Positions 4,630 through 25,997 of a stretch of DNA of 32,000 nucleotides are shown here, one piece after another. The notes beneath the pieces are model-generated. The model was not told the origin of the DNA, did not search any database, and saw nothing but the letters and a program-made list of their open reading frames with translations. The number at the start of each line of letters is the position of its first letter. Positions within the stretch are counted from its first letter, which is position 1. A program made the translations under genes and the position numbers. Source of the stretch: Clostridia bacterium (GTDB lineage Bacteria; Bacillota; Clostridia; Christensenellales; Aristaeellaceae); contig JAUNDF010000007.1 in NCBI GenBank assembly GCA_030526225.1, forward strand, positions 4,863 through 36,862, given 5' to 3'.

Positions 4630-6891
4630 ATGACCAGGGAAAGATTCTTCAAAACGCTGCATACCTGTCTGCTGCCGCTGTGTGCCCTGACCTTTGCTGC
4701 GGGCATCCTGCTGGGCCGCGCAGGGGGCAGCATGTTGTACGGCTGGCTGGCCCTGATTCCCGCGGTGCTGGCGGTTATCGTGATGCCGAAGAAGCTCCGC
4801 TTTATCGGCGCCGCCTCGGTGATGCTGGTGCTGGGCTTTCTGTGGGGCTATCCGGCATTCCATCCGGCTATGCAGGAGGAAGGACTGTACCGTGTGCAGG
4901 GTGTAATGGCGGATGTCATCACTGTCAAAGGACAGCAGCACAGAACGGTGCTGTGTGATGTTACGCTGAACGGTCAGCCGGCGGGCAGCGATGTCTACTG
5001 GACCTTTTACGCCGAGGAAATGCCGGAAGGGCTGGCCCCGGGCAGACAGGTTTCCTTTGAGGGGGAGCTGTATCATCCGTCAAGCGCGGAGAATCCCGAG
5101 GGCTTCAACTTCCGGGAGTATCTTTTGGGCAGCGGCATCAGCTGTGCGCTGTACGGCAATACAGGGCTGGAGGTCCGTCCGTGCCCCTATTTTTCCCTGC
5201 GGGCCATGGCTGCTTCTGTGCGCCAATCCCTCAGCGATACCATGGCACAAGCCATGAGCCCATAGGCCGCCGCCTTTGCATCAGCCATGCTGCTGGGTGA
5301 CCGGAGCATGATTGATGCAGAGGACAGGGCCGCCTTCAACCGGCTGGGTATTGCCCACATTCTGTCCATGTCGGGCTTTCATGTGGGCATTCTGGCGGCA
5401 ATGCTGATGCTGGTGCTGAAAAAAGCATCGCCGCGCTTCCGGCTTTGCGTGACGGGGCTGGTGCTGGCCTTCTACTGCCTGCTGACCGGCGGTCATGTGC
5501 CGGTGATCCGCGCCGGCTGTCTGGTGCTCATCAGCCAGTACGGCAGGATGAAAAACAGGCGCGTGGATACCCGCTGGGTGCTGTGCGCCGCCTTTATCAT
5601 CACGCTGATGCTTTGCCCGGCGCAGCTTGTTTCCGCAGGCTTCCACATGACCTATGGCGCGGTGCTGGGGCTGAGCATTGTGAGCCGTGCACTGCAAAGG
5701 CTGTCCCCGCTGGGCAGCCGCCCTGTGGGCAAGGCGGTGTGGCAATCCTTCGCGGCCTCTGCGGGCGCGCAGTTCGGCATTCTGCTGCCCCAGCTGTACT
5801 GGTTTCAGCAGCTGCCGCTCATCAGCCTGATATTGAACATGGCGGTGATTCCCTTCGGCAGTCTGCTCATCGGCTGCCTGTGGGTCAATCTCCTGCTGTG
5901 CCTGTGGATGCCTGCGGCGCAGCTGTTCGGCCATGTGACCTCCTTTTTGACGGACATCCTGCTGGGTGCCGTGCGCCTGACGAACACATGGCCGGTGATG
6001 ATGCTCTGGACCCGCCGTGCAACGCTGCTGACGGCGCTGATGTGGGCGGGGATGCTCCTTGTGCTGTGCGTGTCATGGCGGGGGAGGAAAAAGCGGATGG
6101 GCTGCACCTTTGCCGCCATGGCGATGGTGCTGTGCCTGTCCCTGTGCCCGCTGCCCCATCATGGGACGGAATACATCCAGCTGTCTGTGGGCAATGCCGA
6201 TGCCGCCATCCTGCGGGATGAAAATACGGTCACCGTCATTGACACCGGCGAAGACGGCAGTGCAGTCAGCGATTATCTCCATGCCGGACGGCTGTCTGTT
6301 GACCATTTGATTTTGACACACCTGCACATGGACCATCTGGGCGGCGCAGCAGCACTGCTTCAGGACGGCATCCCCATCCGGCGGGTGTATATCCCCGAGG
6401 GCGCGGAAACGGCTGGCATCAGCGACGATGCACGGGCTGTGCTGGCTGCCCTGCGGAACAGCGGGGCGGAAATCGTTGCCGTCAGCCGGGGGGATACGCT
6501 GATGCTGCCCTCCGGCACACTGCAGGTGCTTTGGCCGGAGAAGGGCCGCGTACGCCCGGGGCAGGATGCCAACAGCTCTTCCCTCGTCCTGCGGGCAGAG
6601 CTTCGCGGCAGCACCATGCTGCTCACCGGCGATGTGGACGGCGATTACGAGCATTACGCCGCCGCACCGGCGGATATCCTGAAGGTTGCCCATCACGGCT
6701 CCTACAGCTCCACCGGACCGGCGTTTGTACAGGCTGTTTCGCCCAGAGCGGCGATTCTTTCCGGAAAGACCGCGGGCAGGATTGAGAAAACGAAGGAGCG
6801 GCTGGGCTGCCCTGTGTATGCCACGGGGGAGCGCGGCGCCGTAACGGTGGTGCTGGAGGAAGGCGGCTTCCGCATCAGCACGGTAAAATAA
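4630..6891 (+). CDS. comEC: DNA internalization competence protein ComEC/Rec2 (DUF4131 + Competence + MBL domains) with one in-frame TAG at 5263-5265. Under code 11 it would be a pseudogene or two fragments (4630-5265 and 5287-6891).
   Basis: Both ORFs are in the same frame (4630 and 5287 are each 1 mod 3). Reading through gives ...AQAMSP[TAG]AAAFASAMLLGDRSMIDAEDRAAFNRLGIAHILSMSGFHVGIL, which is the conserved ComEC core. The C-terminus carries HLHMDHLGG (MBL domain). holA is immediately downstream, as in Firmicute comE loci. No Shine-Dalgarno sequence precedes ATG 5287. Confidence 0.85.
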
Positions 6892-6912
6892 GCAATTTTT
6901 GTGAGGAACAGT

Positions 6913-7914
6913 ATGAATCATCGTGAATTGCAGCAGGCCATTGCAGCGGGGAAAATCGGGCGGCTGTACCTGCTGGACGGCACCGAGGAAAACCTGAAGG
7001 ACGAAGCGCTGCAGCTGCTGCGCAAGCAGGTGCTGCAGGAGGGGCTGGAGGACCTGAACGAGGCCGTGATGGACAATCCCCCCACGGACCAGATTATCGC
7101 CGCCGCGGAAACCCTGCCCTTTATTGCAGACAGGCGGCTGGTTATCGTCCGGGATCTGCAGTGCCTGACAGGCCGCGGAGAGACCGATGACCGGCTGAAG
7201 GACTACATGGCCCATGTGCCGGATACCACCGTGCTGGTGTTCTTTACCCGCGGCAAGGCCAACGGCACCAAGGCGCTGTACAAGCAGATTAAAAAGCACG
7301 GCCAGATTGTCACCTTTGAAAAGCTGAAGGGAGCGGAGCTGACAAGGTGGATTGTGGAGGAATTCCGCAAAAACGGCAAGACCTGCTCCAATCAGGTGGC
7401 GGACAGGCTGTCCTTTACCACCGGCACGGATACGGGGCTGTTGACGGCGGAAATTGCGAAGATTTCCTCCATGGCCGATGACCGGGACAATGTGGACCCG
7501 GAGGACATCGACAGGATGGCCACCCGCTCCATTGAATGCACCGTGTTTGAAATGGTGGATGCGGTGGTGGCCGGTCAGCAGTCACGGGCCTTCCGGCTGA
7601 TGCGGGACATGGTCACTGCCGGCGAGGACCGGCTGGGCATCCTGGCCATGCTGCTGCGTCAGTACCGGATGCTGCAGCACGTGAAAATCATGCAGTACGA
7701 AAAAAAGAGCGTGCAGGCCATGCAGCAGAGCCTGGCGGTGGCACCCTTCGTGATGGAGCGGTACCTGCGGCAGGCCAAGAGCTACACCGGCGGTCAGGTG
7801 AAGCGGGCGGTGGACATCTGCCTTGATACGGAATACCGTGTCAAGTCCGGCCGGATGAATCAGGAGGGCTCGCTGGAAGCCGCCATGTTAAAAATCTTTG
7901 CCCTGCGGCAGTAA
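6913..7914 (+). CDS. holA: DNA polymerase III delta subunit
   Basis: 333 aa, counted from the ATG at 6913 (GAGGAA ribosome-binding site at 6903-6908). Delta-subunit-like N-terminus (LYLLDGTEENLKDEAL) and C-terminal domain. Conserved position after comEC. Stop codon is TAA. Confidence 0.85.
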   Translation: MNHRELQQAIAAGKIGRLYLLDGTEENLKDEALQLLRKQVLQEGLEDLNEAVMDNPPTDQIIAAAETLPFIADRRLVIVRDLQCLTGRGETDDRLKDYMAHVPDTTVLVFFTRGKANGTKALYKQIKKHGQIVTFEKLKGAELTRWIVEEFRKNGKTCSNQVADRLSFTTGTDTGLLTAEIAKISSMADDRDNVDPEDIDRMATRSIECTVFEMVDAVVAGQQSRAFRLMRDMVTAGEDRLGILAMLLRQYRMLQHVKIMQYEKKSVQAMQQSLAVAPFVMERYLRQAKSYTGGQVKRAVDICLDTEYRVKSGRMNQEGSLEAAMLKIFALRQ

Positions 7915-7929
7915 GAAAAGAGGAAACCC

Positions 7930-8502
7930 ATGAAACGCAAGGAATTTCTTGATTTATACCAAACGGTGATGGTCACCGACCCCAAAACCGGCAAGCAGAA
8001 GCGCCGGGCCAAGTACATCGGGCCGTATTATGAAACGGACATGGCTTCCAAGCGGAAGCTGGTGCCGCTGCTGTGGGTGCTGTTTGTACTGCAGGCGGCG
8101 GTATACGCCGTCCCCGGGCTGATGTTTTCCACCATGATGACTGCATGGTATGTGCTGGTTCCGTACCTCATCTGCCTGCTGCCCATGCTGTATGCGCTGA
8201 TGGCCATGTTTGAAATCTCCACCATCAAAAATCCCCTGACCCGGGTGAAGCTGGCGGAAGGGCCGGAGAGCGCGAAGAACATGACCACCGCATCTGCCGT
8301 GGTGGGCATCATCTGGCTGGTGTGCGACATCATCTTTGCATTTGCCGGTGCCTTTGGCGCAACGCTTGCAAGCAACATCATCTGCATGGTGTGCGCGGCG
8401 GCCTTCAGCGGCCTGAACGCCATGATGGCAGTGAAAATCCGCACCATGGTGATTACGGAAAAACCGCAGGAGACGGAGGAGCGGCATGAAGGAGAAGCGT
8501 GA
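7930..8502 (+). CDS. Hypothetical multi-pass membrane protein
   Basis: 190 aa. AGAGGAAA ribosome-binding site. About four hydrophobic helices and an acidic tail. I do not recognise a family. Stop codon is TGA. It overlaps the next gene by 17 nt. Confidence 0.55.
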   Translation: MKRKEFLDLYQTVMVTDPKTGKQKRRAKYIGPYYETDMASKRKLVPLLWVLFVLQAAVYAVPGLMFSTMMTAWYVLVPYLICLLPMLYALMAMFEISTIKNPLTRVKLAEGPESAKNMTTASAVVGIIWLVCDIIFAFAGAFGATLASNIICMVCAAAFSGLNAMMAVKIRTMVITEKPQETEERHEGEA

Positions 8503-9790
8503 ATATACCCCCAGAGGCAGGGCAGACAAGGGCGCAAAGTTCCGCGGCTTTTCTCAGCCAAAGCGCCCCTGCGCCGCCAAACAGGAGACCGGTGATACCA
8601 AGGCGAAGACCGGCAAGCCTTCGCAGAAAAAGCCTGTGAGCAAGCTGGCCTGTCCTGTGGCCCACAAGTGCGGCGGCTGTCAGCTGACGACCATGACCTA
8701 CCGCGACCAGCTGGCGCTGAAAAAGAAGCAGGTCACGGAGCTTTTGGAGGGCATCTGTCCGGTGGAGGATGTCATCGGCATGGAGAAGCCCTTCCACTAC
8801 CGCAACAAGGTGCACGCCGTGCTGGGCGTGGATAAGCGTGGCATCCCCGTCAGCGGTGTGTATCAGGAGGGCACCCACCGGCTGGTGCCTGTGAAGTCCT
8901 GCCTGATTGAGGACCGCCGCGCCTCTGCCATCATCCAGACCATTGTGGCCATGCTGCCCCGCTACAAGCTGCGCATTTACAACGAGTACACCCATCGGGG
9001 CTTCCTGCGGCACATTCTCATCCGCACGGGCGAAAAGACAGGGCAGATCATGGTGGTGCTGGTGGCAACGGGCCGTGAATTCCCCGGCTACCGTGCCTTT
9101 GTGGAGGAACTGACGAAAAAGCACCCCGAAATCACCACCGTGGTGCTGAATGTCAACACCCGGGAGACCAGCATGGTGTTGGGGCAGAAGGATTATCCTC
9201 TGTATGGCGACGGATATATGGAGGACATTCTGTGCGGCAAGCGCTTCCGCATTTCGCCCCAGTCCTTCTTTCAGGTGAACGCCAAGCAGTGCGAGATCCT
9301 GTACAGCACTGCCCTTGATATGGCCGGGCTCACCGGCAGGGAAACGGTGCTGGATGCCTACTGCGGCACGGGCACCATCGGCCTTTGCGCCGCTGACAGG
9401 GCCAGGCATGTGCTGGGCGTGGAGCTGAACAGCGCCGCCGTGCGGGATGCCAAGGAAAACGCCCGCATCAACGGCATCAAAAACGCATCCTTCATCTGTG
9501 AGGACGCGGGCCGGTTTATGGTCAAGGCAGCCAGAGAGGGCTCTGTGCCTGATGTGGTGCTGATGGACCCGCCCCGGGCAGGCAGTGACGAGAACTTCCT
9601 CAAATCCCTGCTGACCCTTCAGCCGCCGAGGATTGTGTATGTATCCTGCAATCCCGAAACCCTGGCCCGGGATTTGCGCTATCTTGTGGAAGGCGGCTAC
9701 CGCGCCGAAAAAGCCATTCCCGTGGATATGTTCCCGTGGACGAGCCACGTGGAGACGGTGGTGGCGCTGTCCAAACCCTCTGCGGAGTAA
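8486..9790 (+). CDS. rlmD: 23S rRNA (uracil-C5)-methyltransferase, RlmD/RumA (TrmA) family
   Basis: 434 aa. Fe-S cluster cysteines (CPVAHKCGGCQL), SAM motif (DAYCGTGTIGL) and DPPRAG. Lys/Arg-rich N-terminal extension. GGAGGAG ribosome-binding site. Stop codon is TAA. Confidence 0.85.
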   Translation: MKEKREYTPRGRADKGAKFRGFSQPKRPCAAKQETGDTKAKTGKPSQKKPVSKLACPVAHKCGGCQLTTMTYRDQLALKKKQVTELLEGICPVEDVIGMEKPFHYRNKVHAVLGVDKRGIPVSGVYQEGTHRLVPVKSCLIEDRRASAIIQTIVAMLPRYKLRIYNEYTHRGFLRHILIRTGEKTGQIMVVLVATGREFPGYRAFVEELTKKHPEITTVVLNVNTRETSMVLGQKDYPLYGDGYMEDILCGKRFRISPQSFFQVNAKQCEILYSTALDMAGLTGRETVLDAYCGTGTIGLCAADRARHVLGVELNSAAVRDAKENARINGIKNASFICEDAGRFMVKAAREGSVPDVVLMDPPRAGSDENFLKSLLTLQPPRIVYVSCNPETLARDLRYLVEGGYRAEKAIPVDMFPWTSHVETVVALSKPSAE

Positions 9791-9832
9791 CCAAACACAG
9801 GACACAAAAAACAGAACGGCAGGTGAAAAAAT

Positions 9833-10381
9833 ATGAAGATTGAGAGAATTGTCTGCGACCTGAACGGACACACGCTGGTGCTTCGGAGCGCCGAAAAAGA
9901 GGATGCACAGATGCTGCTTCCGTACCTGAAAAGAGTGTGCGGAGAAACGCGGTTCCTTCTCCGTGAGGCGGATGAATGCGGGGATATGACGCTGGAGCAG
10001 GAAGAATCGTTCATCGTCAGCCATATGGAGGATGAGAAGGCCTGCCTGCTGCTGGCAGAGCTGGACGGCGAATACGCGGGCAACGCTTCCTTCCATGCCG
10101 CGGGTGCAAGCAGGAGAAATGCCCATCGGGCAGACCTCGGCATTGCGCTGTATCAGGCGTATACAGGCATGGGCATCGGCAGAAAGCTGTTTTCTACCTT
10201 GCTGGACATTGTCAAGCAAAGCGGCTTTGAATCGGCATAGCTCACCGTGGTGGAGGGCAACGACCGGGCCATCAGCCTGTACAAGTCCTTCGGCTTTGTG
10301 GAGACGGGTCGAATCCTCAAGGCAAACAAGTACGATGACGGGACGTATTCCGATGATATTTTCATGATGAAGAAATTGTGA
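9833..10381 (+). CDS. GNAT family N-acetyltransferase with one in-frame TAG at 10238-10240. Under code 11 it is truncated at 10240.
   Basis: The same frame continues through the TAG: ...GMGIGRKLFSTLLDIVKQSGFESA[TAG]LTVVEGNDRAISLYKSFGFVETGRIL...MMKKL, then TGA at 10379-10381. The segment after the TAG is the indispensable GNAT motif B / beta-strand region (N..AI.LY...GF...G). Without it the 135-aa product would lack half of the fold. Confidence 0.8.
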
Positions 10382-10405
10382 TACAATGTGCAGGAGGTGC
10401 GGCCC

Positions 10406-10606
10406 GTGAATCAGTCGGAGCGCATGGAAGCCTTTGAAAAAATGCTGGCGGATATACAGGAGCGCGCCGCCTTTGAGCAGCGCAAAATGGAGGAACTGAA
10501 GGCCGCGGGCAAGGAGAAATCCGCCACCTATCGCCAGTACTTCGGCAACAAAATGCTCTACAAAATGATGCTCGATCAGTACCGGGCCTACGGACTGATG
10601 GAATAA
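10406..10606 (+). CDS. Small hypothetical protein, predicted helical/coiled coil
   Basis: AGGAGG at 10392-10397 is followed by GTG at 10406. The ATG at 10424 is an alternative start. The charged heptad-like sequence is MEAFEKMLADIQERAAFEQRKMEELKAAGKEK. Stop codon is TAA. Confidence 0.4.
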   Translation: MNQSERMEAFEKMLADIQERAAFEQRKMEELKAAGKEKSATYRQYFGNKMLYKMMLDQYRAYGLME

Positions 10607-10629
10607 ACCGACAGAAAAGAGGGATTGTC

Positions 10630-11310
10630 ATGAAGATTCCCGCAGGGTTTCTGACGCCCACGGACTTGAATGCCGTGGCATCAAAGGACAGCGGCTACAT
10701 CAACAACAAGGGCGCAAAGCTGTACGCCATGGAGGAGTACCCCGCCGCGGTGGAATACTACCGGCTGGCGGCGGCCATGGGGGATGTACACGCGGTGTCC
10801 AATCTGGGCTACTGCTATCTGTACGGCCGTGCCATGGAGCCGGATGTGCAGCTGGCCATCGCCTATTTCCAGACCGCAGCCATGAAGGGCGATGTGGATG
10901 CCGCCTACAAGCTGGGCGATATCTACGGCAGAGACAAATGGGGCGTGATGGACACGGAAATGTCCCTGTACTACTACCGGATGGCTGTGGGCCTGATTGC
11001 CCCCGACTTGGGCAATGATGCCCGGAGCGTGGTGTTCTGCGACCGGCTGACTGACTACCCCAGCCTGTGCCTTGCCATGGGCCGTGCGTTTATGCCGGGC
11101 GGCATGCTGAATACCGATGTGGAGACGGCCTTCTGCTTCCTGAAAAAGGCGGAGGAGGGCTACGCAATCCAGCTGGCCAACGGACAGAAAATGTATGAAA
11201 AGTCCATGGAGCAGGTACAGCAGCTGCTGGACAACCCTGTTTTTGATTCCATCGGCTTCAAATTCCGGGACATGTTCGATGATGACATCGGGGAGTTTGA
11301 GGACGAATAA
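10630..11310 (+). CDS. Sel1-like (SLR/TPR) repeat protein
   Basis: 226 aa. Repeated A..YY..AA..G...A...LG.CY..G units, for example AVEYYRLAAAMGDVHAVSNLGYCYLYGRAM and AIAYFQTAAMKGDVDAAYKLGDIYG. Acidic tail. Stop codon is TAA. Confidence 0.75.
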   Translation: MKIPAGFLTPTDLNAVASKDSGYINNKGAKLYAMEEYPAAVEYYRLAAAMGDVHAVSNLGYCYLYGRAMEPDVQLAIAYFQTAAMKGDVDAAYKLGDIYGRDKWGVMDTEMSLYYYRMAVGLIAPDLGNDARSVVFCDRLTDYPSLCLAMGRAFMPGGMLNTDVETAFCFLKKAEEGYAIQLANGQKMYEKSMEQVQQLLDNPVFDSIGFKFRDMFDDDIGEFEDE

Positions 11311-11347
11311 GCTGTCAATCATCCAATCGATTAAGGAGGAATGACCC

Positions 11348-12022
11348 ATGTATTTTGACCCTACCTACATTCTCGTGATTATCGGTGCCGCCGTTTGCGG
11401 TCTGGCTTCCATGCACGTGAAGAACACCTTCAACAAGTACAACGACCTGTACAGCAGCGTGACGGCGCAGGAGGTGGCAGCCACCATGCTCCGCGATGCC
11501 GGCATTGACGATGTGCGCATCGAGTCCGTTTCCGGCAGCCTGACCGACCACTATGACCCCACCCAGAAGGTGCTTCGTCTCAGCGAAAGCGTGTACGGCT
11601 CTTACTCTGTGGCTGCCATCGGTGTGGCGGCCCACGAATGCGGCCATGCCATCCAGCACAAGGAAGGCTACATGCCCCTGAAGCTGCGCTCCCTGTCTGT
11701 GCCTGCGGCCAACTTTGGCTCTGTGCTGTCCTGGCCGCTGATGGTGCTGGGCATCATTCTGGGCTACAGACCCCTGACCACCATCGGCATTTTGCTGTTC
11801 AGTCTGGTGGTGCTGTTCCAGCTGATTACCCTGCCTGTGGAGTTCAATGCCTCCAGCCGCGCGCTGGCCATCCTCGACGGCAAGGGCGTTCTGCGCGGTG
11901 AACAGCTGCAGGGCGCAAAGGCCGTGCTCAGCGCCGCCGCCATGACCTATGTGGCCGCTTTGTTCAGCTCCATGATGCAGCTGACCCGCCTGATTCTGAT
12001 TTCCAAACGCAACGACGATTGA
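11348..12022 (+). CDS. Membrane zinc metallopeptidase, YugP/Zn_peptidase_2 family
   Basis: 224 aa. MYFDPTYILVIIGA..., LTDHYDP, AAHECGHAIQH (HExxH) and TLPVEFNASSRAL match this family throughout. AAGGAGGA ribosome-binding site. Stop codon is TGA. Confidence 0.85.
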   Translation: MYFDPTYILVIIGAAVCGLASMHVKNTFNKYNDLYSSVTAQEVAATMLRDAGIDDVRIESVSGSLTDHYDPTQKVLRLSESVYGSYSVAAIGVAAHECGHAIQHKEGYMPLKLRSLSVPAANFGSVLSWPLMVLGIILGYRPLTTIGILLFSLVVLFQLITLPVEFNASSRALAILDGKGVLRGEQLQGAKAVLSAAAMTYVAALFSSMMQLTRLILISKRNDD

Positions 12023-12052
12023 TTTCAACCGACCATCCGAAAGGAATCAGCC

Positions 12053-12511
12053 ATGATTACACTGCACAAAATCGACGAATCCAACTTCCTTTCGGCCTTC
12101 CGGCTGCAGCTGGGGGAGGGGCAGGAGAAATACGTGTCCGGCCCCATCCGCAGTCTGGCCCAGGCATATGTGTACCGCGACCAGTGCCAGCCCTTCGGCA
12201 TCTTCCACGGGGAGGAAATGGTGGGCTATGTGATGGTCATCTGCGACTACGATGTGCCGGAGTACGATATCTGGCACATGATGATTGACAAGGCGCATCA
12301 GGGCAGGGGCTATGGCCGCAAAGCCATGGAGCAGGTGCTTGCGTACATCGGCACAAAGCCCTTCGGTGATTACAGCCGGGTGTGCCTCACCTGCCACGAG
12401 GAAAACGAAGCCGCCCTGCGTCTGTATCGCAGTCTTGGCTTTGCCCCCACCGGCAGCCGGGACGAAGAAGAAATTGAACTGGTGCTTGATATTGCACCGA
12501 CGGAGGCATAA
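12053..12511 (+). CDS. GNAT family N-acetyltransferase (diamine/spermidine acetyltransferase-like)
   Basis: 152 aa. Contains HQGRGYGRKAMEQVL (acetyl-CoA motif A) and NEAALRLYRSLGF (motif B). Stop codon is TAA. Confidence 0.8.
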   Translation: MITLHKIDESNFLSAFRLQLGEGQEKYVSGPIRSLAQAYVYRDQCQPFGIFHGEEMVGYVMVICDYDVPEYDIWHMMIDKAHQGRGYGRKAMEQVLAYIGTKPFGDYSRVCLTCHEENEAALRLYRSLGFAPTGSRDEEEIELVLDIAPTEA

Positions 12512-12514
12512 CCT

Positions 12515-13660
12515 ATGGAACAACAACGCAGGCGTCTGGCAGCCACCGGCTACCTGGCCTTCCTCTTCAGCGGCCTTTGCGCCATTTCTGCCGGTGTGGT
12601 GGTCAGCATCCTGAAGGAAAAGTACCAGCTGTCCTTCGGCATGTCGGGCACGCTGCTGTCGCTGATGAGCGTGGGCAACATGGCGGCATCCTTTGCCGCA
12701 GGACTTCTGCCGGGAAAAATCGGCACGAAGAAAACCGTGGCACTGCTGTGCATCGGGTACTTTGTCGGGTATCTGCTGACGGCCTTCTTCAGTCAGGTGG
12801 GCATCCTGATGGGCGCATTTTTGCTCATCGGCATTGCCAAGGGCTGTGCCATCAACAACTGCACGGTGCTGGTGGGCAACAACGCCGCCGACCGGGCCAA
12901 GGGCATGAGCCTGATGCATGCCTTCTACGCCGTGGGTGCCATGGTGGGTCCCTTTGTGATTACTGCCCTTGCCATGATTAACAACACCATGCCCATGCTT
13001 GGCCTCGCGTTGGGCGGTCTGGTGATGTGGCTGATTTTCATGGCGGCCGGGCTTGACAACAAGCCTGCCAAGAAGGCGGACGGCAAGACCACGGACTTCT
13101 CCTTCCTCAAGGACCTGCGCTTCTGGCTTTTGACAGGGCTGATTTTCTTCCAAAACAGCGCCGAAACCGCCGTGACCGGCTGGCTGGTGACCTACTACAA
13201 GGACAGCGCCATCCTCAGCGGCACACTGAGCACCTACACGGTGACCATCATGTGGGGCGCAACATTGGCGGCTCGGCTTCTGATTGCCTTCGTGTTCCCG
13301 ATTAAGAACACCTTCAAGGCGCTGGCCATCATGGGCGCGGGCTGCGTGGTGCTGTACTTCGGGCTGGTCAGTGCGGTGACGCCGGTGATGGCCATCGTGA
13401 TGCTGGCAGGCTTTGCCTTTGCCATGGCGGGGGTCAATCCCGTGGGCATGGCCGGTGTTGGCAAGCAGATGAACGCCACCACCGTAGGTGTGCTGATTCC
13501 TCTTGCCGCCCTCGGACAGATTGTGATGCCCTGGATTATCGGCATCGCTGCTGACGGCATCGGCCTGCAGGCCGCCATGTGGCTGAACCTGATTCCCTGC
13601 GTCGGCATCGTGGTGATGAGCATCTGGATTATGATGCTGGATAAGAAAAAAGGTATATAA
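12515..13660 (+). CDS. MFS transporter
   Basis: 381 aa with about 12 hydrophobic segments in a 6+6 organisation. GGAGG ribosome-binding site. The start is 4 nt after the preceding GNAT stop. Stop codon is TAA. Confidence 0.85.
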   Translation: MEQQRRRLAATGYLAFLFSGLCAISAGVVVSILKEKYQLSFGMSGTLLSLMSVGNMAASFAAGLLPGKIGTKKTVALLCIGYFVGYLLTAFFSQVGILMGAFLLIGIAKGCAINNCTVLVGNNAADRAKGMSLMHAFYAVGAMVGPFVITALAMINNTMPMLGLALGGLVMWLIFMAAGLDNKPAKKADGKTTDFSFLKDLRFWLLTGLIFFQNSAETAVTGWLVTYYKDSAILSGTLSTYTVTIMWGATLAARLLIAFVFPIKNTFKALAIMGAGCVVLYFGLVSAVTPVMAIVMLAGFAFAMAGVNPVGMAGVGKQMNATTVGVLIPLAALGQIVMPWIIGIAADGIGLQAAMWLNLIPCVGIVVMSIWIMMLDKKKGI

Positions 13661-13677
13661 TTGATTTCATCAAAAAA

Positions 13678-16604: not shown

Positions 16605-16606
16605 GA

Positions 16607-17666: not shown

Positions 17667-17697
17667 CGAATGCCTCCCTTGGTGCTTTGGTGATATA

Positions 17698-17847: not shown

Positions 17848-17871
17848 AGCTGTGAAGCAAAATTCACAGCT
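17848..17871 (-). terminator. Rho-independent terminator after the YoaP-like GNAT gene (CTGTGAA/TTCACAG family)
   Basis: AGCTGTGAA-GCAAAA-TTCACAGCT. On the minus strand it is followed by TTTTTTAT. Confidence 0.75.
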
Positions 17872-17881
17872 TAAGTACACC

Positions 17882-18628
17882 TTACCCTTTCTTCAACAGT
17901 TTCTCCAGCGCCGCTGTTTCCAGCAGATTGACGCTGATGAACTTCCCCTTGTAGAACGCGCCGAAGTTATTAAACACGCAGGGGAGCGCCTTGGCCTTTT
18001 CCAGCGTATCCACATGGTGCAGCACCAGCGGAACATCATGGGTGCGGCAGTATTCCTCCAGCGCCGCCACCTTCATGGGGATAAAGGGACACTGGTCGGA
18101 GTAGTACACGGTCAGCGCTTCGTCATCAATGTGCTGTGCCTTGGCGGCGGGGGCAAACCGGGGGAGGGTGCCGTCAAAGGAGAGGGCCAGCAGCAGGTAG
18201 CTGTCATCCGTTTCATCCACCGCTGCAAAGCCGTGCTTCATGGCAAAGGCCTGATTGGACAGCCAGTTCTTCTGCTTTCTTGCACCCAGCATGCAGATGC
18301 CGGATTTCCCCTCGGCTTTGGCCTGATTGATGCAGTCCTCCAGCAGTCTGGTGGCATAGCCGTTCCCCTTCAGGGCACCATCCACCCAAAGGCAGTAAAT
18401 GTACAGGTAGTTGTCGCCGAGGACGGGCACCCACGCCTTTTCCAGCGGCGCATATTCGATAAAGCAGCAGCCCTTGTCATCCAGCTTGCGGAACACATGC
18501 CCCTCGGGGATGCGGCTTTGCAGCCAGCGGCGCTTTGTATCCACACCGGGATGCGCCTTCTTGCGGATGATACAGCACAGATGCTCCGTCTGCACGGTGC
18601 TTCCATCAAGGGTGATAAACTCGCACAT
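17882..18628 (-). CDS. GNAT N-acetyltransferase with a YoaP-like C-terminal domain
   Basis: 248 aa. The N-terminal half has a GNAT core (LKGNGYATRLLEDCINQAKAEG...AFAMKHGF). The C-terminal half (LTVYYSDQCPFIP...FNNFGAFYKGKFIS) resembles the YoaP-like domain. Stop codon is TAA. Confidence 0.75.
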   Translation of the reverse strand: MCEFITLDGSTVQTEHLCCIIRKKAHPGVDTKRRWLQSRIPEGHVFRKLDDKGCCFIEYAPLEKAWVPVLGDNYLYIYCLWVDGALKGNGYATRLLEDCINQAKAEGKSGICMLGARKQKNWLSNQAFAMKHGFAAVDETDDSYLLLALSFDGTLPRFAPAAKAQHIDDEALTVYYSDQCPFIPMKVAALEEYCRTHDVPLVLHHVDTLEKAKALPCVFNNFGAFYKGKFISVNLLETAALEKLLKKG

Positions 18629-18664
18629 GGGGCAGCTTCCTTTCCGATTGATTGGGCGAACGGG

Positions 18665-19357
18665 TCAGTCCTGGGGCACTTTGCCGTTGAGCAGCGCCTT
18701 GATTTGCGGCCATTGGGGCATGAAGCGGGTCATCATGGCCTTGAATTCTGCGCCGTGGTTGGGGATGCGGATGTGCATCAGCTCGTGCAGAATCACATAG
18801 GACAGGCATTCCGGCGGGTGCTTGGCCAGATGCAGGTTCAGGGTGATTTTTCTGGTGTCGGGCCTGCAGCTGCCCCAGCGGGAGGTCATGGCCCGAATCT
18901 GCCACGCGCTGCACTTCAGCCCCGTGGTGCGCTCCCATTGGGGCATCAGCCGGGCGATGGCATCCGTCAGCTGGCGGCGGTAGAAGGCATTCAGGACCGC
19001 TTCCTTCTGCGGCAGTGCAGCATCCTTGGGAACGGACAGAATCAGCCTGTCGCCCTCCAGCCGCACGCTGCTGCGCACCTTTGCCTCGCGGATGGTCAGT
19101 ACGCAGGGTCTGCCCCAAAGAAGGATTGTATCCCCGTCCTCCAAAGCGGCGGCTGTCATGGGTGCGCCGGCGTATTTGACCTGCTGGGCGCGAATCCAGT
19201 CAGCGCGGGATACAATGAACGATTCGATGTCCTTCACGCTCATGCGCAGGGGCGCGGAAACACGGATGTGGCCGTCCGGTGCGCATACATACAGGTGGAG
19301 TCCCTTTATTTTTTTCCGAAGCAGGTCAACCTGGAAACCGGCAATGATTTGCTGCAT
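18665..19357 (-). CDS. YgjP-like/DUF45 (M48 superfamily, SprT-like) metallopeptidase
   Basis: 230 aa, counted from the ATG at 19357 (AAGGAGA ribosome-binding site). Contains the HELMHIRIPNH zinc motif. The 299-aa ORF that starts at 19564 is an unsupported extension. Stop codon is TGA. It lies 36 nt upstream of the GNAT gene. Confidence 0.8.
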   Translation of the reverse strand: MQQIIAGFQVDLLRKKIKGLHLYVCAPDGHIRVSAPLRMSVKDIESFIVSRADWIRAQQVKYAGAPMTAAALEDGDTILLWGRPCVLTIREAKVRSSVRLEGDRLILSVPKDAALPQKEAVLNAFYRRQLTDAIARLMPQWERTTGLKCSAWQIRAMTSRWGSCRPDTRKITLNLHLAKHPPECLSYVILHELMHIRIPNHGAEFKAMMTRFMPQWPQIKALLNGKVPQD

Positions 19358-19496
19358 GGCTGTCTCCTTGTTTGCTGTTTCTGATACCAAAATTATAGCC
19401 TGCGGTGGCGGCGGTGTAAATGGCATTGCAGGCAGGAAAAATGACCGGGAAAGTCGAATTTCTTTTCCGGAAATGATGATAATGGAGGAATCCGCC

Positions 19497-20453
19497 ATGA
19501 AAATCGCTTTGCTGGAGCCCCTGGGCGTTGCCCCTGAAATGATTGAGGAACTGAGTGCCCCCATCCGGGTGGCCGGTCACGAATTTGTATATTATGCTGC
19601 CAAAACCACCGATCCCGAAGAGCTGATTCGCCGCAGTGCCGGCTGTGAAGCCGTGATGATTGCCAACAATCCCTTCCCGGCACAGGTGGTCAAGGCCTGC
19701 CCCGAGCTGAAGCTGATTAATGTTGCCTTCACCGGCATTGACCATGTGGCACAGGATGCCTGCCGGGTACAGGGCATCACCATCTGCAATGCCGCCAATT
19801 ATTCCAACCAGACCGTGGCGGAAATGGTCATCGGGCTGGTCATCGGCCTGTATCGCCATCTGGATGCCTGCAACAAGGCCGTCCGCACCGGCGGCACCTC
19901 TGCAGGGCTTATGGGCCGGGAAATTGCGGGGCGCACCGTGGGCATCATCGGCACGGGAAAAATCGGCCTGATGACGGCACGGCTGTTCCAGGCCTTCGGC
20001 GCAAAGGTGATTGCCTATGCACCCCGGCCCAAGGAAGCGGCGCTGGCCATGGGCATTGAGTATATGTCTCTGGAGGATGTGATGGCAAAAAGCGACATTG
20101 TGTCCGTGCATACGCCCAACATCCCCTCTACCCGCGGGCTGATCAGCCGTGAGATGATTGCGCTGATGAAAAAGGATGCGGTGCTTATCAACTGCGCCCG
20201 CGGCCCCATCGTGGACAGCGCCGCGCTGGCGGATGCTCTCAACGAGGACCGCATTGCCGGTGCGGGTGTGGATGTGTACAACGTGGAGCCGCCCATCCCC
20301 GACAGCGAACCGCTGCTCCATGCCAAAAACACGCTGCTGGCTCCCCATGTGGCCTTCCTCTCCGAGGAGGCCATGGTGCGCCGCGCCCATATCGCCTTTG
20401 CCAACATGAAGGCGTATCTCGACGGCAAGCCGGAAAATGTGGTTGCGTACTGA
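19497..20453 (+). CDS. D-isomer-specific 2-hydroxyacid dehydrogenase (phosphoglycerate/glycerate dehydrogenase-like)
   Basis: 318 aa, counted from the ATG at 19497 (GGAGGA at 19484-19489). NAD-binding motif GIIGTGKIG. Catalytic region NCARGPIVD...APHVA. Stop codon is TGA. Confidence 0.85.
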   Translation: MKIALLEPLGVAPEMIEELSAPIRVAGHEFVYYAAKTTDPEELIRRSAGCEAVMIANNPFPAQVVKACPELKLINVAFTGIDHVAQDACRVQGITICNAANYSNQTVAEMVIGLVIGLYRHLDACNKAVRTGGTSAGLMGREIAGRTVGIIGTGKIGLMTARLFQAFGAKVIAYAPRPKEAALAMGIEYMSLEDVMAKSDIVSVHTPNIPSTRGLISREMIALMKKDAVLINCARGPIVDSAALADALNEDRIAGAGVDVYNVEPPIPDSEPLLHAKNTLLAPHVAFLSEEAMVRRAHIAFANMKAYLDGKPENVVAY

Positions 20454-20477
20454 TTGGTGACGGATGAGGTTCCCTTC

Positions 20478-20510
20478 AGGAGGTGTGAAAGGAGTTTTTC
20501 ACATCTCCTT
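20478..20510 (+). terminator. Rho-independent terminator after the dehydrogenase gene (TGTGAA/TTCACA family)
   Basis: AGGAGGTGTGAAA-GGAG-TTTTTCACATCTCCT (one G-U pair) followed by TTGCTTT. Confidence 0.65.
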
Positions 20511-20563
20511 TGCTTTATCCTGTAAAATACCTTTTATCAATGCAGAATCCACCGCAAATGCCA

Positions 20564-20592
20564 TTGCCAACCGGCAGTGAATATTGTACAAT
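20564..20592 (+). promoter_or_regulatory. Candidate SigA promoter for the SBP-kinase operon
   Basis: TTGCCA (20564-20569)-N17-TACAAT (20587-20592), about 45 nt upstream of the ATG at 20639. Confidence 0.5.
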
Positions 20593-20638
20593 ATATATTG
20601 GTAATTTCTGTGATGACAAATCTCGGGAGGTTGTAAAC

Positions 20639-22093
20639 ATGAAAAAATTTGTTGCAATGCTGCTGGCAGTTGTTCTGCTGCCTGTGATGGCCTTTGCCGC
20701 CGACGGTACCAAGACCGCGCAGCTGGACCCCAGCAACCCCGTATCCCTGACTGTATGGCACTACTACAACGGTGCCCAGCAGGCTGCTTATGATGAACTG
20801 GTGGAGCGCTTCAACACCACCGTTGGCAAGGAGATGGGCATCTATGTGCAAAGCTTCTCCCAGGGCTCTGTCCGCGATCTGGAAACGGCTGTTATCAATG
20901 CCGTGGACGGCGTGATTGGCGCTGAACCCCTGCCCAACATCTTCTCCACCTATGCCGATACCGCTTCCGCTGTGCAGAAGAAGTGCGACCTGGTGGACCT
21001 GAAGGAATACTTCACCGAGGAAGAGCTGTCCGCTTATGTGGATTCCTACATCGGCGAGGGCTATTTCAACAATGACGGTCACCTGTACCTGTTCCCCGTG
21101 GCCAAGAGCACCGAAATCCTGATGATCAACGCCACCGACTGGGAGGACTTTGCCGAGGACACCGGCAGCACCCTGGAGGAGCTGAGCACGGTGGAGGGCA
21201 TCGTCCGCGTGGCTGACCGCTACTATGACTGGACCGATGCCAAGACCCCCGATGTTGCCGATGACGGCAAGGCCTTCTACGGCCGCGATTCCGTATCCAA
21301 CTACTTCATCCTCGGCACCAAGCAGATGGGCGTGGACATCTTCACCGTCAAGGACGGTCAGCTGACCATCAATGCCGACAAGGAACTGATGCGCCGCCTG
21401 TGGGAGAACTTCTACGTTCCCTTCGTCCGCGGCCGCTTTGATGCCCTGGGCAAGTTCCGCTCCGACGACGTGAAGACCGGCGATCTGCTGTGCTACACCG
21501 GCTCCTCTTCCTCTGCCATGTATTTCCCCGATACCGTGGAAACCGATGACGACAGCATCGACATCGACCACATCATCCTGCCCGCCCCCATGTTTGAAAA
21601 CGGTGACAACTACATCGTGCAGCAGGGTGCCGGCATGGTGGTCACCAAGAGCGACGACAAGCACGAGTACGCCGCCGCTGTGTTCCTCAAGTGGTTCACC
21701 CAGCCCGAAAACAGCCTGCGCTTCGTGGTTGAATCCTCCTACATGCCCGTCCGCAAGGATGCCCACAGCATGGAAATGCTGGACAAGGTTATCGCCGACA
21801 ACAACCTGCGCGTCAATTCCAAGAGCTATGACTGCCTGAAGGTGGTTATCGAGCGCACCCACGATGTCCCCGGCTACTACACCGCTGTGTTCCCCAATGG
21901 CAGCAAGGCCCGTTCCATCCTGGACTACAACCTGCTGGACCAAGCAAAGGAAGACAAGGCCGCTGTGGATGAACAGGTTGCCTTGGGCGTAAGCCGTGAG
22001 GATGCCGCCGCTCCCTACATCACCGACGAAGCCTTTGAGGCATGGTATGAGCAGTTCGTTGCCGCTCTTCATGCCGCTGCCTTCAACGAATAA
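20639..22093 (+). CDS. Extracellular solute-binding protein (ABC-type, family 1-like), secreted
   Basis: 484 aa, counted from the ATG at 20639 (GGGAGG ribosome-binding site). Signal peptide MKKFVAMLLAVVLLPVMAFA|AD. SBP-like body (LTVWHYYNG...). No ABC permease or ATPase genes are adjacent. It is followed by the sensor kinase. Stop codon is TAA. Confidence 0.8.
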   Translation: MKKFVAMLLAVVLLPVMAFAADGTKTAQLDPSNPVSLTVWHYYNGAQQAAYDELVERFNTTVGKEMGIYVQSFSQGSVRDLETAVINAVDGVIGAEPLPNIFSTYADTASAVQKKCDLVDLKEYFTEEELSAYVDSYIGEGYFNNDGHLYLFPVAKSTEILMINATDWEDFAEDTGSTLEELSTVEGIVRVADRYYDWTDAKTPDVADDGKAFYGRDSVSNYFILGTKQMGVDIFTVKDGQLTINADKELMRRLWENFYVPFVRGRFDALGKFRSDDVKTGDLLCYTGSSSSAMYFPDTVETDDDSIDIDHIILPAPMFENGDNYIVQQGAGMVVTKSDDKHEYAAAVFLKWFTQPENSLRFVVESSYMPVRKDAHSMEMLDKVIADNNLRVNSKSYDCLKVVIERTHDVPGYYTAVFPNGSKARSILDYNLLDQAKEDKAAVDEQVALGVSREDAAAPYITDEAFEAWYEQFVAALHAAAFNE

Positions 22094-22160
22094 GCTGAAC
22101 CGGCAGAATCAGTAAAGTCCATTGAATACCGCGAAAAAATCTTTGAGAGGAGAAAACCGG

Positions 22161-25100
22161 ATGAAGCGTAAACGGTCATTTTTGTCCATATTTCTGGTGC
22201 CGCTGATGATCGTTGCATTTATACAGGGATTTCTCCCTTTTGCCACGCTGGTTGTCAGTGATGTGAAATCCATCATGGAGAACAACATCATCAGCATGGA
22301 CCAGAACGCTGTGGAAAACCGGCGGCTCACCCTGGAAAACGCCATGGTGGACCGCTGGAGCAGCGTGCTGGGCGAGTCTTCCAGTGTGGCGGAGCATCTG
22401 CAGCAGGTGCTGAAGGACAACGGCGCCGACATCGATGATTTCATTGCCTCGGATGAAATGCAGCAGCAGCTATTGGAAGCCATTTTCCCGGAAATGGTGC
22501 TGGCGCTGCAGAACAACACCACCAGCGGCCTGTTTCTGGTGCTGGACAACGGCAAGGACATGATGCAGCCGGCCAAGTACAACGGCTTCTTCCTGCGGGA
22601 CTCCGACCCCACCAACAAAATCAGCAGCAACACCGACATTCTGCTGGAGCGCGGCAGCAAGCGGCTGGCCCGCCAGCAGAACATCCCCATGGACAGCCCC
22701 TGGGCAACCCGCTTCAAGCTGGAGGGCTTCGGCTACCGCAAGGCGGACGATTTCTTCTACCAGCCCCTGAAGGCCGCAAAGGAAAACCCGGGCGTTGAAC
22801 CACGAATCCTCGGCTACTGGTCCCCGGCCTTCATTCTGGAGGACCACTATCTGGATACCCATCAGATGATTACCTACTCCGTGCCGCTGGTGTATCAGGG
22901 CCGGGTGTACGGCGTGATGGGTGTGGAGGTCTCCACAAGATACCTGGCAACCTATGTCCCCGTCCGCGATCTGGACCAGGGCCTGAACGCCGGCTATGCC
23001 ATTGCCGTCAGCAAGGGCGACGGCGTGTATGAGGTGGTCATGGGCACCGGCTCCCTGTACAAGTCGGTGGTGGGCAACAGCTCCGCCTTCCGCGTGACCG
23101 GCGAGCGCAAGGAACACCTGTACGAGCTGGAAAACGGCGTGGTGGGTGAGCAGAGCGTTTACGCCCTCATTTCCCCCATGAAGCTGTACAGCAACAACGT
23201 TCCCTACGAGGGCACCGAATGGGCGCTGGTGGGCTTTGTAACGGAGAACTCCGTCTTTGCCCCCGGCAATCTGGTGTACGGCCGAATCCTCACCACCATT
23301 CTGGTCTGCTCTGCGGTGGGTCTTTTGATGATTATCCTGCTGGTGCGCAAGGTCACCCGGCCTGTCAACCGGCTGATGGAAAGCGTCCGCCGGGGCTACA
23401 AGGGCCTGAAGGAATACGAACCCTCCTCCGTCCGTTAGGTGGAGGAGCTGCACGATGTGGTGCTGGAGCTGACGGAGGCACAGCAGACAGCCGCAGACAA
23501 GCTGAACGAGGAAAAGGAACGCTACCGCGTTGCCATCGACTCGGCAACGGACGTATTCTTCGTGTACCGCCGCGAAGAGAAAATGCTGGAGATTGTGAAT
23601 GACTCAATCAACAGCGGCGTTTGGTCTCTGGGGGATGAAGAGTGCAGTATCGTGCGCGAGTCCATCCATCCCGAAGACCGGCAGATGTTTATCGACTACA
23701 TCAACAACCCGCAAGGTGACATGGAGATGGAGCTGCGCGTCCGCAGAAGACCCGAGCACCCCTACATGTGGGTAGAGGTCAGCGGCCATCTCTTCGGCGG
23801 CACCGGCGGCGAGCATCTGCGCGTGGTAGGCTATATCCGAAACATCAACCAGCGCAAGCAGCAGGAGCTGGAGCGGGAAATGCGCCAGGTCCTCGACCCG
23901 GCCACCAGCCTGTACCGCGCCGCTGCCGGCTTCAACCGCATGGCGCAGATGCGAAAGCTGAACCCTGTGGGTACGCTGCTGCTGGTGGATATCAACAGCT
24001 TCTCGACCATCAACGAAAAGTATGGCATCGTTTTCGGCGATGTGGTGCTGGATGAACTGGCCAAGCTGCTGCGCGGTGCTGTCAGCGTGCTGTGTCCCGA
24101 GGAAGCACTGCTGATTCGTGCCGGCGGCGACGAGCTGCTGGCATGGCTCCCCGGCGTTGCGGAAGGCCAAACGGCAAGCGTGATGCCCGAACTGGAGCGC
24201 CGCTTTGCTTCCCTGATTCACTCCGCCTCCGTGCCCCTGCGGCTTGACTGGGCCACTGCCCCCGCAGACGGGGAGGTCAGCGATCAGGCACTGGTGCAGC
24301 GCACCAAGCAGAAGCTGGCAGGCGCCTACCATGGCGGCAGCACAAGGGACTTCTCCGAGCCGGTTTCCATCGGCTACAACACCAGAGCCGATATTGCCAC
24401 CCTGGCCCGCAACATGTTTGAGCGCACCGATGATATCGGCGCTGTGCTGGATCTGGTGGCGCTTCGCCTTAAGGAGCAGTACGGCATCACCGATATGCTG
24501 ATTACCGACTTCCGCTACGACAGCCTCTCCAGCACGCTGGAATACTCCTGGCGCAAGGGACCGCAGGCAGATATGCACGAGGTTGTCAGCCACTGTAAGG
24601 AAGAGGAATACCGCCTCTTCTGGCAGCATGTGGAAAACAAGCAGCTCCATGCATATGTGGATGAGCTGTCAAAGCATCCGCTCTTTGCCATGATGGGGCA
24701 GCTTGATGCCGGCATTACCTATCACATGATGGATAACGGCAGCTACTCCGGCAGCATCGTGTTTGCAGGCGCTTCCACGGCCATCCTCGATAACGAGGCC
24801 GACCGCACCCGCCTGACTGAGGTGGGCCGCGCCATCCAGAACCGCATCAATCAGGAGCGTCACGACCAGTCGGCACAGGCCAAGTCCGACTTCCTTGCCC
24901 GCATGAGCCACGAAATCCGCACCCCCATGAACGGCATCATCGGCATGACGGAAATCGCCCTGAAGCCCGGCCAGACCGAAGAACACCGCATCGAGTGCCT
25001 GAAGAAGGTCCGCAGCTCCTCCAACTATCTGCTGGGTCTGCTCAATGACATTCTGGACATGTCCAAGATTGAAAGCGGCAAGATGCAGCTGGTGGAAACG

Positions 25101-25997
25101 GACTTCAATCTGGATAAGCAGCTGCGCGAGCTGCATGTACTGCTGGATGCAAAGTTCCGCGAAAAGAACCAGACCTTTGTCACTTCCTTCGACCTGAAGC
25201 ACAAGTTTTTCCACGGCGATTCCCTGCGCATCAATCAGGTGCTGATTAACCTGATTGGCAACGCGGTCAAGTTTACCGGGGAAGGCGGTCATATCTACCT
25301 GACCGTGAAGGAAACCGTGCTGGACAGCAGCCGCTCTCAGCTGTCCTTCTCCGTGCGGGATGAAGGCATCGGAATCTCTGCCGAAGACAGGGAACGCATC
25401 TTCCTCAGCTTTGAGCAGGTCAATTCCCCCGAAGCCAACCGTCAGGGCACCGGCCTTGGTCTGGCCATTTCCAGCCGTATGGTGCACATGATGAACGGCG
25501 AAATTCAGCTGGACAGCGAGGTTGGCCGCGGCAGTGACTTCCACTTCGACCTGATGTTGTCCCCCGTGGACATGCAGGAAGAGGCCGCTGAAGAGCGCGT
25601 GGACTTCGACTTTACCGGCGTGAAGGTGCTGGTGGCCGAGGACAACGAGCTGAACATGGAAATCATCTGCGAGGTGCTGGGTGACTACGGCATGCTGGTG
25701 GATGGCGCCACAGACGGCCGCAAGGCAGTGGAGAAATTCGCCGCCGCCGCGCCGGGCACCTATGATCTGGTGCTGATGGACATTATGATGCCCAACATGA
25801 ACGGCATTCAGGCCACCAGAGCCATCCGCTCGCTGGACCACCCCGACAGCAAGACCGTGCCCATTGTGGCCATGACCGCCAACGCCTTTGATGAGGATGT
25901 GAAGCGCTCTCTGGCCGCCGGCATGAACGAGCACCTGTCCAAGCCCATCAACATCCCCGAGCTGGAGAAAACGCTGGCAAGGGTGCTGAAAAAGTAA
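22161..25997 (+). CDS. Hybrid sensor histidine kinase/response regulator with one in-frame TAG at 23436-23438, inside the HAMP-like linker. Domain order is TM, extracellular sensor, TM, HAMP, PAS, GGDEF-like, HisKA, HATPase, REC. Under code 11 it would be two fragments (22161-23438 and 23439-25997).
   Basis: Both ORFs share a frame (22122 and 23439 are each 0 mod 3). The junction reads ...LLVRKVTRPVNRLMESVRRGYKGLKEYEPSSVR[TAG]VEELHDVVLELTEAQ. Downstream are PAS, a GGDEF-like segment (VDINSFSTINEKYGIVFGD...RAGGDELLAWL), the H-box SHEIRTPMNGIIG, the G-boxes GTGLGLAIS, and REC (VLVAEDNELNMEI...DLVLMDIMMP...KP). Start is the ATG at 22161, preceded by GAGAGGAG. Stop codon is TAA. Confidence 0.85.

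Follow-up and report, generated by a model that had tools for sequence, protein, structure and literature searches.

In a 32,000-nucleotide stretch of the metagenome-assembled genome (MAG) of an uncultured, gut-type Clostridia bacterium (GenBank assembly GCA_030526225.1, contig JAUNDF010000007.1; hereafter, the window), we found three genes, for a ComEC/Rec2 competence protein, a GNAT N-acetyltransferase, and a hybrid sensor histidine kinase, each interrupted once by an in-frame TAG codon at a position where homologous proteins have glutamate. The three in-frame TAGs at glutamate columns are a real and statistically odd feature of this DNA. Glutamate-inserting decoding of UAG (amber) is, narrowly, the best explanation, and from the sequence the bacterium might read UAG, partially or completely and at least part of the time, as glutamate; our confidence in this is less than even. 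Reassignment or suppression should be regarded as a live candidate, with roughly one chance in three, and not as a demonstrated fact.

To our knowledge, all natural reassignments of stop codons in bacteria concern UGA, and UAG is a sense codon only for pyrrolysine or, in phages, for glutamine. An earlier note on the window, made from the sequence alone, had proposed that TAG is read as a sense codon here. In the present study, we compared the three genes with their homologues, calculated how often chance would produce such a pattern, and weighed the proposal against the ordinary ways in which a stop codon may arise within a gene.

In-frame TAG codons in three genes

Translation confirmed one in-frame TAG in each of the three genes at the positions given by the earlier note, with the frame open beyond it to the TAA or TGA codon that ends the gene (Table 1). 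As the note had stated, the remaining domains of each protein are encoded after the TAG, and Pfam finds them there. In ComEC, whose full-length homologues have 740-790 amino acid residues (aa), 211 codons precede the TAG and 541 follow it, the latter holding the Competence and Lactamase_B domains. The GNAT gene is interrupted after 135 of its 182 codons; the truncated protein scores 32.6 bits against Acetyltransf_1, versus 56.1 bits for the read-through protein, which then covers the profile to its end (116/116). The kinase consists of an extracytoplasmic sensor, a transmembrane (TM) helix, a linker, and PAS, GGDEF-like, HisKA, HATPase_c, and receiver domains, and its homologues of the same architecture have 1270-1340 aa. 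The 852 codons after its TAG encode the GGDEF-like, HisKA, HATPase_c, and Response_reg domains found by Pfam.

No other TAG occurs in a credible coding frame of the window, the remaining TAG-containing open reading frames (ORFs) being low-scoring antisense shadows. All interruptions are TAG, as the note had claimed: neither a frameshift nor an interruption by TAA or TGA was found in the 31 supported genes. The surroundings of the three TAGs (CCA TAG GCC, GCA TAG CTC, and CGT TAG GTG) share no sequence motif.

Table 1. Positions of the three interrupted genes, their in-frame TAG codons, and the starts annotated downstream
Feature	Position	Strand	Description
ComEC/Rec2 gene	4630..6891	+	753 codons read through; DUF4131, Competence, and metallo-beta-lactamase domains; ends with TAA
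In-frame TAG no. 1 (ComEC)	5263..5265	+	Linker between DUF4131 and Competence; Glu column 93/119
ATG, NCBI start of the 534-aa downstream ComEC piece MDO4483238	5287..5289	+	No Shine-Dalgarno motif upstream
GNAT N-acetyltransferase gene	9833..10381	+	182 codons read through; ends with TGA
In-frame TAG no. 2 (GNAT)	10238..10240	+	Within the GNAT domain, motif A-E-L-T-V-V; Glu column 112/118
Hybrid sensor histidine kinase gene	22161..25997	+	1278 codons from ATG 22161 read through; ends with TAA
In-frame TAG no. 3 (kinase)	23436..23438	+	Motif E-(V/I)-D-E-L of the juxtamembrane linker, right after the TM helix; Glu column 68/68
GGAGGAG (23441-23447), then GTG 23457, 9 nt on	23441..23459	+	Shine-Dalgarno-like; equals two Glu codons; NCBI start of the 846-aa MDO4483259

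The placement of the TAGs differs in part from the earlier description, which had put them inside conserved domains. This holds for the GNAT gene, but the ComEC TAG lies in a linker outside any Pfam domain. The kinase site had been labelled HAMP; the 203-aa segment that spans it gave no HAMP match in Pfam even at E<=1, and only a weak match to PAS_3. The site is a juxtamembrane motif, E-(V/I)-D-E-L, that is specific to the kinase family.

If UAG terminates translation here, the split genes could survive by restart at ATG 5287 in ComEC and GTG 23457 in the kinase, which would give two-piece proteins with some function. The ComEC break falls between Pfam domains and the ATG lies only 7 codons past the TAG, but it has no Shine-Dalgarno sequence before it. 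The kinase GTG does have a good Shine-Dalgarno-like sequence 9 nt upstream, so that the note's statement that the downstream pieces lack one was correct for ComEC but not for the kinase; this GGAGGAG, however, is simply two glutamate codons. The GNAT gene is broken inside the fold, and its 46-residue remainder has neither a start site of its own nor a family match. A cut between the membrane sensor and the cytoplasmic modules of the kinase would lose signal coupling, and restart leaves the glutamate at all three breaks unexplained. We consider such split but working genes very improbable.

Glutamate at the TAG columns

Among 119 full-length homologues of ComEC, the TAG column contained E 93, T 13, D 6, S 4, R 1, K 1, and Q 1. 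The corresponding column of 118 GNAT homologues contained E 112, G 3, Q 1, R 1, and C 1, and that of the kinase contained E in all 68 homologues of the same architecture. The share of glutamate was thus 78%, 95%, and 100%, respectively. Glutamate was also the residue that the note had given as most plausible from family consensus, and the alignments agree with it at all three sites; glutamine, its second suggestion, was present in at most one homologue of ComEC (of 119) or GNAT (of 118) and in none of the 68 kinases. Every one of the 119, 118, and 68 homologues had a sense codon at the TAG site. Each TAG is one G>T transversion away from GAG.

The columns themselves are unusually conserved. 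The fraction of the GAG codons of the gene that lie in columns with at least 75% glutamate was 0.235 in ComEC, 0.667 in GNAT, and 0.107 in the kinase, with a product of 0.017. TAG may, speculatively, have been placed preferentially at functionally critical glutamates, as hinted by this column conservation (p ~0.017). No simple hypothesis, random nonsense mutation included, predicts TAGs on unusually conserved glutamates; the observation is post hoc and may be due to chance.

The ComEC linker beside the TAG (5230-5290, residues 205-216) departs from near-invariant residues at four positions (L205M, G210S, G214A, and Y216F), of which G210 was conserved in 118, G214 in 119, and Y216 in 115 of the 119 homologues. 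These departures are local remodelling or relaxed constraint right beside the stop codon.

Probability of three GAG-to-TAG changes

The codon usage of the window (GAG 296, GAA 268, CAG 287, AAG 362, TAC 224, TGG 89) was used to calculate how often random mutation would produce the pattern. GAG>TAG makes up 11.7% of the single-base routes to any stop codon, and three of three such changes have p = 0.0016. When only routes to TAG are counted, the share is 20.6% (p = 0.0087), and under a pure G:C>T:A spectrum it is 29.5% of the routes to a stop codon (p = 0.026). GAA is about as frequent as GAG in the window (268 versus 296), yet no GAA>TAA change was seen. Glutamate at all three TAG sites, which the note had proposed, is hard to obtain by random pseudogenisation, with p ~0.0016, or 0.026 under the mutator spectrum most favourable to it.

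Stop codons that lie in frame within pseudogenes arise mostly by transitions and mimic Trp, as reported in the paper on Codetta (PMC8629427). The pattern in the window is unlike this because it needs three transversions at glutamate. A contrasting example was seen in an unrelated, low-GC MAG (locus L058, position ~5182), where two homologues have Trp or Phe at the site of an in-frame TAG; TGG>TAG probably produced an ordinary nonsense pseudogene there. Taken as a whole, the pattern in the window (TAG only, glutamate only, no other lesions, and intact sequence downstream) has a likelihood that is orders of magnitude higher under glutamate decoding than under random pseudogenisation.

The strongest rival is nevertheless of this ordinary kind. 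Three independent and recent GAG>TAG nonsense mutations could have inactivated dispensable genes in a bacterium in which UAG terminates normally, the frames being open only because the events are young, possibly with a raised rate of G:C>T:A mutation (for example, by a MutY/MutM-type defect) or with relaxed selection. We regard this as a serious contender that also stays short of an even chance. The prior is in its favour, since nonsense alleles are common biology whereas a UAG sense code in bacteria would be unprecedented (PMC8629427). None of the three genes is essential (competence, an accessory acetyltransferase, and one of many sensor kinases), and the housekeeping genes fba, holA, rlmD, and nnr in the window are untouched. 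The pieces of the interrupted genes are separate proteins in the NCBI annotation (MDO4483238, MDO4483242, MDO4483258, and MDO4483259). The TAGs are specific to this genome, every homologue examined having a sense codon, and G>T/C>A could account for 8 of the 27 single-step private changes that the window has at conserved columns. On the other hand, about 10% of the genes of the window would need to have acquired a nonsense mutation without any frameshift. All three mutations would have to be GAG>TAG, at the probabilities given above, with no GAA>TAA, TAC>TAA, or TGC>TGA among them; G>T/C>A missense changes are not in significant excess, and no decay is visible downstream.

A split member of the same kinase family, which adds to the case for nonsense alleles, was found in another organism. 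A frameshift divides this homologue (P0244; 43% identical) at one and the same position (query residue ~663) in two loci, L088 (9559-12587) and L089 (1605-4426), from two sequencing runs, SRR30770020 and SRR30769937. Either the pseudogene or split gene is real, or the two samples share an assembly error. A background rate of stop-split genes was also sought in about 80 related MAG loci by means of coding-score flanks, spanning tblastn hits, or both, but the output was swamped by antisense or off-frame alignments and by adjacent genes in the same frame, and no rate was drawn from it.

Downstream sequence, mutational signature, and assembly

Downstream of its TAG, the kinase keeps 136 of 138 conserved columns, its 2 departures being fewer than in almost all homologues. 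The GNAT remainder departs at 2 of 32 conserved columns, within the range of the homologues, and the ComEC remainder at 14 of 145, which is high yet still within the range and as expected of an outlying lineage. On the sequence, the three genes thus appear to be free of downstream decay, although a very recent event would look alike.

Private departures of the window, defined as residues that differ from columns conserved in at least 85% of homologues, numbered 36 when the three TAGs were excluded. Changes that only G>T/C>A can make accounted for 2 of the 36, versus 5% in the pooled homologues (p = 0.55), and changes that G>T/C>A could make accounted for 11 of the 36, versus 23% (p = 0.21). 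These 36 departures contain no signature of a mutator or of oxidative damage, though the power is low, since a signature would be expected to add only one or two events.

The three TAGs could also be artefacts of sequencing or assembly, if 8-oxoguanine had been read as T and carried into the consensus by low coverage or PCR duplicates, and the true codon were GAG. The change is G>T at each of the three sites and on one strand, the classic mark of oxidative damage. The window proteins were found in a single sequencing run (SRR24915835). A second, Logan assembly of this run, made with a different assembler, is 100% identical to the window over 7.4 kb and passes the ComEC and GNAT TAGs (contigs L081 and L082, respectively) without a branch. 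The two assemblies are not independent, coming from one run; the kinase site has no second assembly, and the short Logan contigs across the region (1.4-5.9 kb) suggest modest coverage. Against an artefact, the two assemblers agree without a mismatch, and three such stop codons would imply that the consensus of the 32 kb has about 50 G>T/C>A errors, which is far above the normal error of an assembly. No surplus of G>T/C>A missense changes was seen at conserved columns, and the improbability of TAG only and glutamate only remains even under this spectrum (p = 0.026). We consider an artefact unlikely, with a higher probability than the restart of split genes.

TAG as a terminator

The genes of the window end with TAA in 23 cases, TGA in 8, and TAG in none. 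The note had counted 32 genes with 23 TAA, 9 TGA, and no TAG; its numbers for TAA and TAG are reproduced here, while the genes number 31 and the TGA ends 8. Of 165 genes of the nearest relatives, 10 (6.1%) end with TAG: 9 of 145 by rough, self-trained gene calls and 1 of 20 by the calls of the collection itself (the L083 and L084 loci). At this rate, the chance of finding no TAG among 31 ends is P ~0.14. The absence of TAG as a terminator, to which the note had given weight, is therefore correct as a count but, against a baseline of about 6% in the clade, has almost no weight as evidence.

TAA ends 74% of the window genes (23/31), and the nearest relatives favour TGA (TAA 60, TGA 76, TAG 9; n = 145); the difference between window and relatives in TAA versus TGA ends has a Fisher p of ~0.003. 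A shift of a few former TAG stops to TAA would be too small an effect to account for this surplus of TAA.

A possible route to glutamate decoding

The candidate agent of glutamate insertion would be a tRNA with a CUA anticodon that is charged by glutamyl-tRNA synthetase (GluRS). By the simplest route, a copy of tRNA-Glu(CUC) would have changed from C to A at anticodon position 36, and a GluRS tolerant of variation at this position would still charge the altered tRNA. The non-discriminating GluRSs of bacteria without glutaminyl-tRNA synthetase accept both Glu and Gln anticodons. The CUA tRNA would compete with or replace release factor 1 (RF1), and UAG would then be read partly as glutamate. 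Such a suppressor would cost little, as only about 6% of the genes in the clade end with TAG. Because GAG>TAG would be nearly silent, and hence nearly neutral, under glutamate decoding, TAG would drift into glutamate positions of otherwise intact genes, and TAG terminators would shift to TAA. In its fullest form, the lineage would have captured UAG as a glutamate codon by means of a tRNA-Glu-type CUA tRNA, with RF1 weakened or lost, and would stand early in this process, with TAG making up about 0.5% of its glutamate codons; on the present sequence, we regard this fuller history as doubtful.

Several points weigh against glutamate decoding. Outside pyrrolysine, no sense reassignment of UAG is known in bacteria: none was reported by a screen of more than 250,000 genomes (PMC8629427), and as of 2026 only UGA reassignments have been recorded in them (PMC13462651). 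Because only these are known in bacteria, the prior for decoding of UAG as glutamate is very low (PMC8629427; PMC13462651). No tRNA with a CUA anticodon was seen in the window, which is the only DNA of this genome examined and which holds no tRNA at all. A narrow pattern for the anticodon arm of a tRNA-Glu-type CUA tRNA, applied to JGI metagenomes and IMG/VR, found no tRNA and one chance match in each; given the narrow pattern, this is a weak negative. ComEC, the GNAT, and the kinase are dispensable accessory genes of a kind that is often lost; the kinase homologue of another organism is frameshifted in two samples. The location of the TAGs at unusually conserved glutamates is not predicted by neutral GAG>TAG drift under a glutamate suppressor (p ~0.017), and the lack of TAG terminators (0/31, P ~0.14) is not significant. 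Finally, the pattern comes from one genome and one run, and the nearest ComEC (53% identity) and RlmD (74%) are too distant to judge whether the TAGs are conserved.

Comparison with known systems

Glutamate decoding in the window would resemble the UGA-to-Trp and UGA-to-Gly codes 4 and 25, known from Mycoplasmatales, insect endosymbionts, Absconditabacteria/Gracilibacteria, and some Eggerthellaceae, in that a stop codon occurs in frame at conserved sense positions of chromosomal genes, corresponds to one amino acid, and is unused as a terminator. These codes are defined by a mutated tRNA and the loss of release factor 2, and are conserved across clades at hundreds of sites (PMC13462651, PMC8629427). 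The present case differs in concerning UAG and glutamate, and in comprising three sites in one genome, known from the window sequence alone.

The TAG-to-Gln code of gut phages (code 15), which uses phage suppressor tRNAs, is similar in mechanism to the proposed decoding. It differs in being found in phage genomes, mostly in late genes, and in specifying Gln, whereas the window has chromosomal genes (fba, holA, rlmD, and comEC), no phage genes, and glutamate at the TAG columns. Recoding of this phage type was ruled out, since the window carries chromosomal housekeeping genes and no phage families, and the column is glutamate.

The only known natural precedents for a stop codon read as glutamate are the UAR-to-Glu nuclear codes of peritrich ciliates (code 30) and Blastocrithidia nonstop, which use tRNA-Glu with stop-complementary anticodons (PMC12153298). 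In these eukaryotes, both UAA and UAG are reassigned and eRF1 has changed, whereas TAA is the main terminator of the window (23/31).

Laboratory amber suppressors (supE, supF, and others) and RF1-deleted E. coli carry amber alleles, and single anticodon mutations suffice to produce CUA tRNAs (PMC4434889; PMC11848022). Amber is the least-used terminator, so that the cost of a suppressor is tolerable (PMC4434889; PMC11848022). As in the window, the amber alleles lie in otherwise intact genes, but these suppressors arose under laboratory selection.

Classical amber suppressors insert Gln, Tyr, Ser, Leu, Lys, or Trp, and we know of no natural suppressor in a wild bacterium that inserts glutamate.

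Ordinary nonsense pseudogenes share with the three genes a single in-frame stop codon that is absent from homologues, in dispensable genes. The stops of such pseudogenes, however, typically arise through transitions (precursors TGG, CAG, and CGA), and frameshifts and decay go with them (PMC8629427), whereas here G>T changes at conserved glutamates occur without other damage.

In bacteria, UAG has only one established natural sense meaning, pyrrolysine, which some Bacillota and Deltaproteobacteria insert by means of a pylTSBCD system; organisms that use pyrrolysine tend to have few TAG terminators. As an account of the window, it has next to no probability. None of the three genes encodes a methylamine methyltransferase, the window has neither a pyl gene nor such a methyltransferase, a bulky lysine derivative is an unlikely substitute for an invariant glutamate (68/68), and the pattern implies an origin from GAG and not AAG. 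On the gene content of the window, and with TAA as its main terminator, we rejected pyrrolysine as well as recoding of the phage kind and contamination from an organism with a changed code. On the window sequence alone, the case is not assignable to codes 4 and 25 or to the phage or eukaryotic systems.

The window, its genome, and its relatives

The window has a G+C content of 55-62% and about 31 tightly packed chromosomal genes. They include those for NAD(P)HX epimerase/dehydratase, class II fructose-bisphosphate aldolase, VanY, a metallo-beta-lactamase (MBL) hydrolase, ComEC, HolA, an RlmD-like methyltransferase, several GNATs, transporters, a GntR-ABC module, a solute-binding protein with the hybrid kinase, and an AraC regulator with sugar genes. 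Neither Rfam families nor tandem repeats were found in the 32 kb, Pfam detected no phage families among the genes, and prfA, the gene for RF1, is not among them. No release-factor motif was present in any locus examined.

The NCBI proteins that match the window carry the locus-tag prefix Q4C54 and lie on a 43,375-bp contig of the MAG named "Clostridia bacterium". A search of 185,579 GTDB species representatives with RlmD as the query gave Christensenellales-like MAGs from animal guts as the nearest genomes, with identities of up to 74%; the source MAG itself was absent from these representatives. No synteny with ComEC or GNAT was conserved in the best RlmD-matching genomes. The nearest ComEC sequences in the protein collection were 53% and 50% identical (loci L083 and L084), and these loci have the same MBL-ComEC-HolA order as the window with an uninterrupted ComEC. 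Among 10 candidate paralogues of the hybrid kinase, none came from the source MAG, as judged by accession; one of the ten was the frameshifted homologue P0244. By these comparisons, the organism appears to be a lone representative.

Homologues of the interrupted GNAT with 70-79% identity occur in many Clostridia, Agathobacter among them, whereas the neighbouring ComEC has no homologue above 53%. The Logan assembly breaks just upstream of the GNAT gene, at 9730-9754 (contig L082 covers 9730-11192). Horizontal transfer may have brought the gene in, or strains may differ at this site. Following the GNAT stop codon in the same frame, a 72-codon ORF (10388-10606) with a high coding score and no Pfam family is probably a real small gene. 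Elsewhere, about 645 bp between a FucU/RbsD-like gene and the AraC regulator (28175-28819) contain no supported gene, and upstream of the likely AraC start the frame is open for a further 135 codons, which match no family; the stretch could be a regulatory region or a degraded gene.

Implications

If the three mutations are ordinary nonsense alleles, the window serves as a caution: three nonsense alleles of the same codon and at the same residue are possible in one window, and where TAG is naturally rare, its absence among the terminators is weak evidence.

If, instead, UAG is read as glutamate, the window would come from the first known bacterial chromosome in which UAG encodes a standard amino acid, and prokaryotes would have their first stop-to-Glu code. 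The genetic code itself would be new, or it would be a natural "ambiguous intermediate" in the middle of a change, and the case would bear directly on how codes change. It would also mean that a bacterial GluRS can serve a tRNA with a CUA anticodon, which would provide a natural part for genetic-code engineering. Such a genome would be a blind spot of MAG pipelines, as it looks fragmented under translation table 11 and may be dropped by quality filters.

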